Notes: a model not told the origin generated them from the sequence alone. Positions 59,817-63,700 are shown, numbered from the stretch's first letter. The stretch is 64,000 nucleotides of DNA from an uncultured bacterium (GCA_965541585.1 CBEUCH010000005.1:64001-128000); one strand, 5' to 3'. Numbers and translations are program-made.

Positions 59817-60470
59817 GTGGAAGGGACAAAGGATTTTGCGATGAATGGATACCCGCTAAAAATAGCCGGAATGAGTGTTCAGGAAATGATCCGATCCTCG
59901 ACCGCTGAAATAGAAATCAGCGATAACGCTCTGATTCGCCAGACGCTTGGCGGTAAAGTTAAATCCTTCAGGAAACTCGTTCAGAAGTATCAGAGACAAG
60001 CCGTTCTATTCGCTCGCGGCATGGTCGGCAATCCCGATGACGCTTACGATCTGTCGCAGGAAGCGTTTGTCAGAGTTTATAAACACCTGAACAGATTCGA
60101 TTCGTCGTATCCGTTCAAAGTATGGTTTTTTCATATACTCTCCAATCTCTGCAAGAATCACTTAAGACAGAGAAAGAACCGTCAGGCGGTGACAACGTCG
60201 ACAGAGATGACTGAGACGGCGGCGGCGCCGGAATCCCGGAGACCGGATATAGCATTCCAGAAAACCGAGGTTCAGCAAAAGGTATGGGAGGGGATCGGGG
60301 AGCTCCCTGAGAAGTTCAGGGAAATCATCATCCTCTGCCATTTCCAGGATATGTCATATGAGCAGATGGCCAACGTCCTTGATATTCCCCGGGGTTCGGT
60401 CATGTCGAGACTTTATTACGCGCGGCAGAAGCTACGAAAGATCCTGGAAAACAAGGGGGTGGCGTTATGA
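59817..60470 (+). CDS. ECF RNA polymerase sigma factor
   Basis: DAYDLSQEAF, F..W...I..N.C, LP...R.....SYEQMA..L.IP.GSVMSRL..AR. Exact start uncertain. Confidence 0.92.
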   Translation: MEGTKDFAMNGYPLKIAGMSVQEMIRSSTAEIEISDNALIRQTLGGKVKSFRKLVQKYQRQAVLFARGMVGNPDDAYDLSQEAFVRVYKHLNRFDSSYPFKVWFFHILSNLCKNHLRQRKNRQAVTTSTEMTETAAAPESRRPDIAFQKTEVQQKVWEGIGELPEKFREIIILCHFQDMSYEQMANVLDIPRGSVMSRLYYARQKLRKILENKGVAL

Positions 60471-60913
60471 ATTGTGAGCAGGCCAGAATCCTCCTCTCCG
60501 GATTGATCGATGGCGAGCTTAATCCAGAGGAGAAAAAGATAGCTGGCGAGCATATTGCCTCCTGCCCCGACTGCAGGAAAGAATATGCCAGGTTGAAGAA
60601 TTTGAAGGAGGTTACCGACGATATGAAATATTTCGACCTTCCCGACAAGCTCTGGGCGGGCTACTGGCGGGAAATTTATAATCGTGTGGAAAGAGGCATC
60701 GGATGGATCTTTCTTTCCATCGGCGCCATAATTCTGCTGGCATTCATCGGCTGGCAGATACTCGACAATTTCTTCCTTAACCCCGCAGAACCCCTGTATT
60801 TGAAACTGGGGGTGGGGTTGCTTCTCCTGGGGTTGATAATCCTGCTGATATCGATTATCAGGGAGCGACTCTTTTCCCGCAAACACGATAGATACGACGA
60901 GGTGGAGATATGA
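60467..60913 (+). CDS. Zinc-finger (zf-HC2) anti-sigma factor with two TMs
   Basis: MNCEQAR.LLS..IDGEL...HIASCPDC; overlaps the sigma gene (ATGA). Confidence 0.9.
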   Translation: MNCEQARILLSGLIDGELNPEEKKIAGEHIASCPDCRKEYARLKNLKEVTDDMKYFDLPDKLWAGYWREIYNRVERGIGWIFLSIGAIILLAFIGWQILDNFFLNPAEPLYLKLGVGLLLLGLIILLISIIRERLFSRKHDRYDEVEI

Positions 60914-61230
60914 TTCTTGCGACTACCAATGAATTCCCCGCAAAGGAAATCACCGAGGTTCTCGGCTTGGTTCGGGGAAACACGATCCGGGCCAGACACT
61001 TAGGGCGCGATATAATGGCTCTTTTGAGAGGTATCGTGGGGGGAGAAGTCAAGGACTACACCAAGATGATGGCTGAGGCAAGAGAACAGGCCTTAGACCG
61101 GATGATTGCAGAAGCCGAAGCCCTGGGTGCGAATGCCATCACCGGTATCAGGTTTTCCACATCCTTCGTTATGCAAGGAGCTGCAGAGTTTTTGGTTTAC
61201 GGGACAGCCGTAAAGGTATCCGGCTCATAA
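60910..61230 (+). CDS. YbjQ/UPF0145 family protein
   Basis: G.VGGE...YT.....AREQAL.RM..EA..LGANA..G.RF...YGTAV. Confidence 0.92.
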   Translation: MILATTNEFPAKEITEVLGLVRGNTIRARHLGRDIMALLRGIVGGEVKDYTKMMAEAREQALDRMIAEAEALGANAITGIRFSTSFVMQGAAEFLVYGTAVKVSGS

Positions 61231-61441: not shown

Positions 61442-61924
61442 GTGTCAAAGCGGGCCGAAATCAAATTAGATTCGATTGTATTGTTAACTTCGGTGTTGGC
61501 TGTACTGGTGGCGGGAACCTTGACCATGGCTACCATTACAAGAAATTCCGATAAATCTGAGCAGCGGAGCGAAATCTTCTATGACTCACCGGATCCTATG
61601 AAGAGAGCTGAGCAGGCGGCTAAAGCGGGCATGGATGCTGCAAAGTGGCATATAGAGTGCCATGGCCGGATCGAGGCCGGAGGCCTATCGCCAAAATTCT
61701 TTGCCAATGGCGCAATATACACGGTCGCCTGGGACGATGTGGATATGTTCGATTCGACCGTGGTAGTCAGGAGCATAGGGGAATTTTCCTGGGGAGGCCA
61801 AAGACAATACCAGGTCGATGTCGAATCGAAAATAAAAATTGAATTTCTTCCCTCACGCGGGCAGGAAATATTAAGCGCATATTATTCGCGAAACTCCTCT
61901 ATGAATATAGAGCAGACAGAATAG
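61442..61924 (+). CDS. Hypothetical single-TM protein (weakly PilX N-terminal-like)
   Basis: N-terminal TM followed by RAEQAAKAGMDAA and VVRSIG, loosely like PilX-type proteins. Confidence 0.55.
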   Translation: MSKRAEIKLDSIVLLTSVLAVLVAGTLTMATITRNSDKSEQRSEIFYDSPDPMKRAEQAAKAGMDAAKWHIECHGRIEAGGLSPKFFANGAIYTVAWDDVDMFDSTVVVRSIGEFSWGGQRQYQVDVESKIKIEFLPSRGQEILSAYYSRNSSMNIEQTE

Positions 61925-62081
61925 GGATATGAAGTAATATTTCACGTTCCGGCCATCAGCTTTTCCTAGGTAGCAAGCTGCCTGCCGACATTTCTATCCA
62001 ACAAGACAGTTTCCTTGACATGGCCGCTGCGGATACGAGCCTTGCGATCAAAAAAGATCACGACCCGGGTTGAAGCAACTC

Positions 62082-63083
62082 TCAAAGATGCATTCCGTAA
62101 CTCAGGCCGAATCTGGCCGTCCAGTCCTCTGTCAACTGGCTGCCATTGACATTCTGATAAATTGGTATCTCCAGATTGCTCCACAATTGCAACCCATGAA
62201 TGCCCCTGCCAAGAATGCTATAAGTAATCCCCGGCGAGACATAAATCCAGTCTCCCCCGCTGCTTGCGAAAACCTGACCGTCTCGTTTGTCTTTAGCTCT
62301 GTGGAGCGCATTCATGCGGAAGGAAAAATCCAGCCCGGATTGATTAGAGAAGATTAGCGAGTAAGCTGTGCCTATTCCGTATAGGAAAAAGGTTCCTGAT
62401 TTCGTTCCGTCATCTGATTCACTTAAGATAGGGCGGGCATACAGATTGGCGTTCGCGCTCCACGGTCCCTGAAGCGAGAAAACCATAGAGGCCAGAAAAA
62501 CCGGATCAACCGTCCCGCTGATGAAATTCTTATCGGAGCTAATCGGATTCTCAATGCCTTCTCCTACAGGGATATTGGTGCCGGCCCCCGCAGACAGCAT
62601 GGTCGGGGCGGCGAAATAGCCGAAGGACCAGAAGTATTGCGCTACCAGGGTCAGATCGCCAAATTTCGTGTCACTGTCCTGGACGCTGCCAAGATTAATG
62701 AAGTCCACGCTCAGAAGCGGAAGGGTAGCCTGCAAGGCCAGGCGGTTTGTGAGACCGTAATCAAGTTGCCCGGTATAGACCCGGGCGCGGGTAGCCTGAT
62801 CCATCGGGTTGCTCACAACTTCCGTGCCAGCGCGAAGATCAGCCCGCTTGCTGTAACTTCCCGTGAAGCCGAATTGAATATGTCCCTTGTGCAGGGCGCT
62901 CGATTCGGTCCTGCCGACCGGCAGGTGCGGTGAGCTTCAAAGGCCTCATTGACCTATGGCGACCTTAGCCAGCGGGATACTCAAGGCGATGGATGCCGCC
63001 AAGAACCATGCGGCTAAGTTTGTTGCCTTATTCTTCATTGAGAATCCCCCCGAAACTGCCCCCGATGCTGATTGCTGATGCAT
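62082..63083 (-). CDS. Putative UxxU selenoprotein, secreted outer-membrane beta-barrel/transporter-like
   Basis: Continuous frame from ATG 63083 (RBS AAGGAG) or ATG 63038 through a signal peptide, CAA-TGA-GGC-CTT-TGA-AGC (TGA 62946-62948 and 62937-62939) into track ORF 62082-62816. LDYG, FGD, PIYQNVNG.QL and GLSY barrel features. Confidence 0.8.
62910..62925 (-). promoter_or_regulatory. Bacterial SECIS-like hairpin
   Basis: CCUGCC-GGUC-GGCAGG starting 11 nt after the second in-frame UGA. Confidence 0.75.
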
Positions 63084-63244
63084 AATCTGATCTCCTTAAA
63101 TGTCCCATAGTGTGTCACAGTCCATCACTGCCGAACCTTGATGGCTTGCTGTGACCACCTCAATCTTCGGAGCTACAGGCCGCCCGCGGACGGCCATTTC
63201 CAAGTTGTCAGTTTTGTGGATAGCAGTTTCAGCCAAAAGGTTCC

Positions 63245-63283
63245 CCTACGCCGGCGGCCCTCAGGGTGGTTTCATCCGGTCCG
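63245..63283 (-). repeat. Diverged second copy of the thioredoxin-like gene 3' end
   Basis: Encodes GPDETTLRAAGVG versus GPDEAALKAAGLG in the gene itself (63319-63358). Confidence 0.75.
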
Positions 63284-63293
63284 AGAGCTTCTT

Positions 63294-63572
63294 TCAGGAT
63301 GAGCCGGTTATTGGTCGCCCGAGACCGGCCGCTTTCAGGGCGGCTTCATCCGGTCCGCTATTAACGCAACAATCTGCTATCTTGCCATCAATCAAAACCG
63401 CCGGCACGGTGCGTATCCCCAGGCTCCTGGCCGCTTTCGCTACCCTGTCATCATTCATGTCATGCACGGTCACCTCGCATGACGGGCATGCCAGCCTGTT
63501 GACCATTTGAATTACCTCATTGCATGGGGGGCATCCGGCGCTGAAAATCTCTACTTTTCTTCTGGTGGCCAT
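63294..63572 (-). CDS. Small thioredoxin/glutaredoxin-fold protein with CPPC, CPSC and CC motifs
   Basis: VEIFSAGCPPC, GIRTVPAVLIDG, DCC...GPDE..L.AAG; RBS AAGGAG. Confidence 0.88.
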   Translation of the reverse strand: MATRRKVEIFSAGCPPCNEVIQMVNRLACPSCEVTVHDMNDDRVAKAARSLGIRTVPAVLIDGKIADCCVNSGPDEAALKAAGLGRPITGSS

Positions 63573-63668
63573 AACTTTCTTCTCCTTCTATGGTTTGAAT
63601 CCCGATGCCGTGCGCGGCGAGCGACCTGGCCGATCGTTAGTGGTTTCATTTCAAGACCTCCACCCTGA

Positions 63669-63700
63669 ATAATACACCCTGTAGTATACTACAGGGTCAA
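63669..63700 (-). promoter_or_regulatory. MerR-family operator/promoter
   Basis: TTGACC-20 bp-TATTAT with a perfect 22-bp palindrome ACCCTGTAGTA|TACTACAGGGT (63676-63697) over the spacer. Confidence 0.85.

Follow-up and report, generated by a model that had tools for sequence, protein, structure and literature searches.

The window, the whole stretch of DNA analysed here, is 64,000 nucleotides from an uncultured bacterium (GCA_965541585.1, CBEUCH010000005.1:64001-128000), and relatives of its genome are labelled Zixibacteria. On balance, we believe that the operon at positions 62,082 to 63,700 is probably an Hg(II)-inducible mer-type module without merA, controlled in trans by a MerR encoded on contig C1, with an outer-membrane barrel that likely binds metal via two selenolates. 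The basis for this reading is the promoter geometry, a stub of merR behind the promoter, the regulator in trans, a conserved pair of in-frame UGA codons followed by a SECIS, the selenocysteine (Sec) machinery of the genome, the mer-type neighbors of related barrels, and the lack of merA.

The promoter had the spacing and dyad of a MerR-controlled promoter. On the minus strand, a -35 box (TTGACC, 63695..63700) and a -10 box (TATTAT, 63669..63674) are 20 nt apart, and a perfect 22-bp MerR-class operator (an 11+11 dyad, 63676..63697, with arms that pair at 11 of 11 positions) is centered 8 nt from the 3' end of the -35 box. The original prediction had described these boxes and a perfect dyad, and we found them as described at 63700-63669; its placement of the dyad entirely in the spacer had to be corrected, since the dyad starts inside the -35 box and hence lies partly outside the spacer. 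The congener G001 has the same -35 box, a -10 box of TATAAT, and, like two related barrel loci (L026 and L029), a spacer of 20 bp. Sites of MerR/HMRTR regulators are 22 bp and centered 8 bp from the -35 box, those of CueR and CadR-PbrR are 21 bp with a 7-bp offset (PMC5045206), and MerR promoters follow a rule of 19-20-bp spacers (PMC11672702, PMC4551924). The window site agrees with the MerR/HMRTR length and offset and with the spacer rule. An identity as a CadR/PbrR or CueR operator was disfavored by length and offset, which are 22/8 and not 21/7.

This site was exceptional in the genome. A genome-wide scan for a -35 box, 19-20 nt, and a -10 box with a dyad in the same register found 8 or more of the 11 pairs at 21 sites. 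The one at 63697-63676 alone had 11, and the others had at most 9. Perfect zero-loop palindromes with arms of at least 11 bp occur only 8 times in the 3.5-Mb genome. A sigma-70 scan with spacers of 16-18 nt did not list the promoter, as expected, and mislabeled the dyad as terminator-like.

The dyad resembles mer-type operators, as had been claimed. We compared it with DNA upstream of merR at 20 of 22 merR loci, and it was identical at 17-21 of 22 positions in 13 of the 20 and at 14-16 positions in the other 7, compared to 15 of 22 for the best of 2000 random windows. The operators of L026 and L029 were alike at just 14 of 22 positions. Between G001 and the window, identity was 29/32 from the -35 to the -10 box (boxes and operator), 44/61 in the merR stub, 221/276 in the thioredoxin gene, and 52/59 upstream of the -35 box; these figures point weakly to selection on the operator, since the upstream DNA is nearly as conserved. 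Loose ends at 63669-63675 in sequencing runs X2, X6 and X9 come from other contigs that have a similar operator and ribosome site and a different start, i.e., apparently further loci with an operator of this type.

We read the window promoter as the autoregulatory promoter of a lost merR, and the operon as a mer-type operon minus its regulator, because a frameshifted merR stub lies right behind the promoter. A GGAGG ribosome site (63661-63657) precedes an ATG at 63649 and a merR 5' remnant of about 20 codons (63589..63649, minus strand). Thirteen codons match the start of the MerR helix-turn-helix, the frame slips after codon 13, 7 more codons match in the neighboring frame, and the thioredoxin ribosome site follows; nothing else of the gene is left. 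Four MerR proteins compared with the leader by tblastn gave only non-significant pieces (E 0.15-1.7), which called for a profile scan. With a profile of 17 MerR N-termini run against both genome strands, one slip allowed, the stub scored 24.9 bits and ranked second in the whole genome, below the intact C1 merR (30.7 bits, and 26.2 at a one-base offset) and above the next site (18.9 bits). The stub in G001 is also degenerate, was broken differently, and was not among the best 25 sites of the scan. No intact merR was seen at the window site, and in contigs checked from 8 of 13 sequencing runs, those that bridge the leader (runs X1, X4, X6 and X9) were about equally short. The claim that no merR is adjacent was therefore right for an intact gene and wrong for the broken 5' end that follows the -10 box and precedes the thioredoxin gene; neither merA nor a metal ATPase gene lies beside the locus, as had also been stated.

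The operon is probably switched on by a regulator of similar type encoded at another locus of the genome, which has two MerR-domain genes. The one on C1 (C1:103313-103726) encodes a protein that scored 155.9 bits on the Hg-MerR model TIGR02051 (cut-off 150.85) and fell short of that by at least 39 bits on the CadR/PbrR, ZntR and CueR models. Its Cys80, Cys115 and Cys124 make an Hg-type Cys triad with an 8-residue loop, equivalent to Cys79, Cys114 and Cys123 of B. megaterium MerR (PMC4551924); a three-Cys site is used by Cd/Pb sensors as well (PMC11672702). The second protein, on C3, was rejected as a metal sensor at 31.5 bits. The operator of the C1 merR was identical to the window operator at 19 of 22 positions. 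We found it by direct match; the fixed-register promoter scan and the best-dyad picker had both missed it, its -35 box being out of register. The C1 operon runs merR, a DF-family gene, a thioredoxin-like gene and a MerTP-like gene (112.9 bits, below the cut-off of 180). A search of the genome for a MerR-family gene, suggested with the original prediction, thus found an Hg-type regulator with a near-identical operator. That prediction's proposal of regulation in trans gains from this regulator and loses in one respect: the promoter was the decayed merR's own, so control in trans would be secondary. The regulatory logic, a MerR promoter with a decayed merR, is ordinary, and neither the promoter nor the regulator is of a new kind.

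Downstream of these C1 genes is a second, distant barrel (27%; L004:1727-2677, that is, C1:100226-101176 of the window genome, G000, minus strand) with a CC tip, next to a lipoprotein gene. The trio of lipoprotein, barrel and SagB-like genes found at C1 also occurs in G007 and G011, and in G011 mer-type genes lie about 3 kb upstream.

The barrel gene is polymorphic at this site, by gain or by loss, judging from the alignments. A blastn alignment of G001 with the window extended to 61887 and resumed at 63292 with no barrel between, so that an accessory segment comprising the barrel and its flanks (61888..63291) is missing from G001 at the site where it has the operator, the stub and the thioredoxin gene. 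Loose ends of run X1 are at 61887 and 63319, and X1 has barrel-bearing contigs as well. At the junction, the 3' end of the thioredoxin gene is repeated in a diverged form (78%; 63239..63283, minus strand, with a 74-nt period), likely a mark left when the barrel arrived or by recombination; contigs of X1, X2 and X4, from two studies, have the barrel-side leader without the 74-nt duplication. We infer that the unit of operator, stub and thioredoxin gene is the older one in the window lineage and that the barrel was added to it as an accessory. A check for transcription ending between the two genes found no intrinsic terminator there. None of the sequencing runs listed for this sequence is from RNA, which has no bearing on expression. 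A GC-rich hairpin without a U tract lies between them (63167-63184, minus strand), and relatives have a 17-nt insertion at this hairpin. Converging on the operon from 59817-61230 (plus strand) are genes for an ECF sigma factor, a zf-HC2 anti-sigma factor and a YbjQ 'putative heavy-metal-binding' protein (PF01906); these are probably unrelated host genes because they are conserved in G001 and G007.

The same comparisons bear on whether the operon is a relic. According to this explanation, without merR the 20-bp promoter is weak and has no effective regulation in trans, and the barrel and thioredoxin genes are basal in expression or being lost. The merR gene is broken in both the window and G001, and G001, which keeps operator and stub, had no match to TIGR02051 in a genome that is 89% complete. 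In G007 the thioredoxin gene is at the same site and an operator-like site was not found. G001 lacks the barrel there, and the window barrel subfamily was found in 0 of 13 members of the family at E<=1e-14. However, the dyad is perfect, neither open reading frame is broken, the TGA pair and SECIS are also intact, divergence is greater in the stub than in the operator, and a MerR whose operator matches at 19 of 22 positions is present in the same genome. We consider a relic unlikely.

The first gene encodes a 92-aa six-Cys thioredoxin-fold protein (63294..63572, minus strand) with CPPC, CPSC and CC motifs (CxxC, CxxC, CC). The original prediction of a redox-type protein with these motifs, encoded in the same orientation as the barrel, agreed with this open reading frame at 63572-63294. 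The protein scored 31.6 bits on PF13192 (Thioredoxin_3; gathering cut-off 24.8), with which the Atlas clusters agree, and fell below the cut-off of TIGR00412; no signal peptide was seen in it. By the Pfam cut-off it belongs to the PF13192 proteins of heavy-metal loci, and its homologs are in the same context, but it has six conserved Cys and not one CxxC. The closest solved structure was not close (best E 4e-5). There are at least 1005 homologs, and among the best 120 the three Cys motifs were kept in 119, 120 and 120.

The six-Cys protein is a general accessory of soft-metal operons and not a dedicated partner of the barrel. It was found in 28 of 285 genomes of the phylum. At the 27 other loci, merR was within 2.5 kb in 16, a CsoR-type gene was directly upstream in 5, and the window barrel subfamily was adjoining in only 2. 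Among plasmids there were 28 matches, and all 3 of the annotated loci examined were among heavy-metal genes (heavy-metal regulators, merT/merP, a metal ATPase or ars genes). The proposal of a dedicated pair of six-Cys protein and barrel was not supported by these counts, by the G001 site without a barrel, or by the 5 genomes in which the barrel has no metal regulator beside it.

The second gene encodes a predicted 12-stranded outer-membrane barrel of the COG4313 type, 318 aa long (62082..63038, minus strand; ATG at 63038, with an alternative ATG at 63083). It starts with a likely signal peptide of 29 aa (62952..63038, minus strand) that we read from the sequence, homologs having A-x-A/G before Q/G-U-x-L-U; the mature barrel would likely begin Q-U-G-L-U. 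The window protein had no matches at E<=0.01 among 18,950 NCBIfam models and none in Pfam, including PF13557, the gathering score of which was passed by 5 of 22 barrel relatives. A search of PDB sequences with the barrel profile gave no matches at E<=1, and a plasmid search gave only 2 distant 'transporter' matches at 24%. Among 285 genomes of the phylum there were 25 matches at E<=1e-14, 15 of them at E<=2.5e-32. Gene callers shorten the barrel: 32 of the 33 best representatives were shorter than 295 aa, and signal peptide plus motif stood at the start of none of the 21 representatives with E<1e-26.

The fold was predicted with AlphaFold2 from 131 sequences at a pLDDT of 91, except for residues 1-17, which include both Sec and were below 50. 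The best structural match of the model was the solved COG4313 channel Pput2725 (4RL8; Z 26.3, rmsd 2.4 A over 257 residues; Foldseek E 6e-10), and the match to FapF (5O65) had Z 23.5. The predicted 12-stranded barrel is common to these COG4313/PF13557 channels and the window protein, whereas sequence identity is 16-18%, the window barrel has U-x-L-U at its mature N-terminus, and its context is a metal operon in place of aromatic or lipid uptake. The first 14 residues of 4RL8 are folded inside the lumen, on its periplasmic side, and the channel was argued to carry hydrophobic and not ionic cargo (PMC4493636). The word 'cysteine' does not occur in the available text of that paper, in contrast to the U-x-L-U tip of the window barrel.

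The barrel likely bears two selenocysteines. In-frame TGA codons at mature residues 2 (62946..62948, minus strand; U-x-L-U is conserved in homologs) and 5 (62937..62939, minus strand; Cys at the same place in P0035) are followed by a bacterial SECIS with a 6-bp stem and a GGUC loop (62910..62925, minus strand), the loop being 26 and 17 nt behind them. Its folding energy was -12.8 kcal/mol. The published consensus is a SECIS 16-37 nt behind the UGA, with a G at the start of the loop and at most -7.5 kcal/mol (PMC13188914), and the window element fits it in distance, loop G and energy. Across 8 related sequences the stem had 2 compensatory pairs, a result that none of the slid controls equaled, although the independent events are few and the codons are constrained. 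The U-x-L-U motif followed an A-x-A/G site in 14 of the 14 subfamily genomes that have the N-terminus (of 15 at E<=2.5e-32), and the in-frame UGA was also in L029, L030, L032 and L033. Among six metagenome barrel loci, four had U-x-L-U, one was cut, and one was of the distant CC type. The genome has selA, selB and tRNA-Sec together on contig C11, and selA was found in 3 of 3 other barrel genomes tested. Table 1 of PMC13188914, with 119 families, does not include this one, as far as the available part of that source goes.

More distant relatives have other tips. Six N-termini were examined among the 10 weaker matches, and five had CC or CxC and one a single Sec; the CC and CxC tips are not in strict register with the Sec positions. 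Among 88 sequences of at least 295 aa, 43 had a close pair of Cys and 29 had one Cys. A distant barrel at L114 (G048:C2:96037-96963) has the second Sec only (Q-V-R-U) and a longer C-terminal part (424 aa), and is downstream of a gene with a DYCCGG motif. At L030:420-565, a short Cys-rich open reading frame (CPDSDCGC...CCC) lies between a CsoR-like gene and a UxxU barrel.

Related barrels are often in mer-type operons. With loci that appear under two ids counted once, an intact, co-oriented merR was within about 1.2 kb upstream of the barrel in 7 of the 14 other subfamily genomes, from four genera only (G077, G175, G159, G177, G133, G134 and G135), with MerTP-like, MerC-like, DF, HMA or six-Cys genes in between. 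The association of barrel homologs with metal genes that the original prediction had asked about is thus present in half of the other genomes. Of the four refutation tests proposed with that prediction, three were run here, and it withstood each of them. Two of the 14 loci were cut by contig ends, and in 5 (G197, G167, G089, G199 and G200) the barrel was without merR or merT in the loci examined. MerR control of the barrel is not obligatory, because no Hg-type MerR was found at E<=1e-15 in G167 and G089 (98% and 95% complete). In a tree of 22 rows, the window barrel grouped with L026 (merR, six-Cys thioredoxin, barrel, CsoR, MerTP-like) and L029 (merR, thioredoxin-like, barrel) with support of 97/91. 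The MerR proteins of relatives (8 scanned) scored best on the Hg model, yet at 119-148 bits were below the TIGR02051 cut-off.

These operons were without merA. No MerA above the cut-off was found in the 8 of 8 MerR-linked genomes tested or in G001; G199 has one, on a different contig from its barrel. In the window genome (98% complete), the best match was 381 bits (cut-off 454) and lacked the C-terminal Cys pair. This protein, on contig C6, was ruled out as MerA on both counts; it is a flavoprotein disulfide reductase (G000 C6:42808-44202, L084) and a candidate MerA-like partner for the six-Cys protein, which might feed it in the way that glutaredoxin feeds the MerA-like enzyme of Synechocystis. 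There is no MerT, MerC or MerF inner-membrane Hg transporter at the window locus. Uptake linked to hgcA for methylation was rejected, with hgcA in 0 of 5 genomes.

We consider it quite improbable that the operon is inducible by some other metal (Cd, Zn, Pb, Cu, Ag, Au or an arsenical), with Hg incidental. Such a role would go with the absence of merA from 8 of 8 linked genomes and of hgcA from 5 of 5, with six-Cys homologs behind CsoR-type repressors at 5 of 27 loci or beside metal ATPase or ars genes on plasmids, and with the heavy-metal ATPase gene that converges on the barrel in L119. It fits poorly with a C1 MerR that passes the Hg-MerR equivalog and scores so much lower on the models for other metals, with the MerR-type length and offset of the operator, and with the MerT-, MerP- and MerC-like neighbors in relatives.

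The distribution of the barrel also allows a role as a redox gate, in which a diselenide tip is the site of redox or thiol/selenol exchange in a channel for neutral S, Se or organometallic solutes, and the barrel is linked to mer genes because mobile metal-stress islands captured it repeatedly, with no Hg-specific role of its own. The stand-alone copies in 5 genomes are on three tree branches, distant tips are CC, CxC or a single Cys, COG4313 channels are thought to carry hydrophobic cargo, and uncharacterized selenoproteins are mostly assumed to be redox proteins. We nevertheless rate this explanation as rather unlikely, slightly below that of a relic. The mer-type context recurs on three separate, well-supported branches, both positions are Sec and not the U/C pair usual in redox motifs, and the catalogued UxxU family NF041115 is named as metal-binding.

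If the operon is the Hg(II)-inducible module that we favor, it could work as follows. The apo-MerR from C1 would bind the window dyad and repress the promoter, and Hg(II) would convert it into an activator of this 20-bp promoter. After export, the U-x-x-U tip would sit at the mature N-terminus of the barrel, at or in its periplasmic mouth or lumen. Selenols bind Hg more tightly than thiols. By analogy to the C-x-x-C of MerP, the tip would bind Hg(II) or neutral Hg species linearly; linear coordination of this type is cited in PMC4551924. In the cytoplasm, the six-Cys protein would buffer metal or repair thiols. Lacking MerA, the module would capture the metal and hand it over instead of reducing it, and for this reason we regard capture as more plausible than uptake for reduction. 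Routes that do not use MerA are described in PMC8261052, including a glutaredoxin-dependent, MerA-like enzyme.

A more specific version is possible but tentative, and we would doubt it as it stands: a merA-independent, selenium-based defense against Hg, in which a channel induced by Hg-MerR carries a di-Sec plug that captures Hg at the envelope. The plug would take up Hg(II) itself or a neutral sulfide, chloride or methyl form of Hg, and the downstream sinks would be MerT/MerC and thioredoxin-fold proteins rich in Cys. Haft and Gwadz (10.1101/2022.07.06.499078) argued that a need for selenium would be a strange basis for resistance to Hg, and this doubt cuts both ways for our reading of the window.

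The window operon shares several properties with mer operons controlled by Hg(II)-MerR (TIGR02051). The 19-20-bp spacer and 22-bp dyad are common to its promoter, a regulator with a Cys triad and 8-residue loop is encoded on contig C1 and in relatives, and related loci have MerT-, MerP- or MerC-like genes. In contrast, the merR of the window is a stub, there is no merT at the locus and no merA above the cut-off in 8 of 8 linked genomes, and the operon adds a selenoprotein outer-membrane barrel and a six-Cys protein, neither of which is a textbook mer gene. Catalogued selenoproteins linked to metals include NF041115 (UxxU metal-binding), NF045683 (MerT/CopZ selenoprotein), NF049942 (DF), NF049945 (TonB receptor FCYXU) and NF041027 (GSU2204 barrel). 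They have in common with the window barrel the replacement by Sec of a metal-binding Cys pair, a heavy-metal context, and DF genes in the same operons, but the barrel has a different fold and no NCBIfam model match.

In the libraries and literature searched, we found no description of a di-Sec COG4313 barrel in merA-less mer-type operons; survey supplements and the PGAP internal reference set lay outside this search and could list the barrel. The 2022 survey (10.1101/2022.07.06.499078) found no selenoprotein among the characterized mercury-resistance families, and how cells with mer genes minus merA cope is stated, for merB, to be an open question (PMC8261052).

Based on these results, we believe that the barrel represents a family absent from the catalogs we checked, with two likely Sec at the tip of an outer-membrane channel, in Hg-MerR operons of genomes without merA. 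A regulator and a second operator with which to test it are at hand in the same genome. If the more specific version, a selenium-based defense against Hg, is true, the family would include a selenoprotein that acts directly in Hg resistance and would give mer systems an outer-membrane component.
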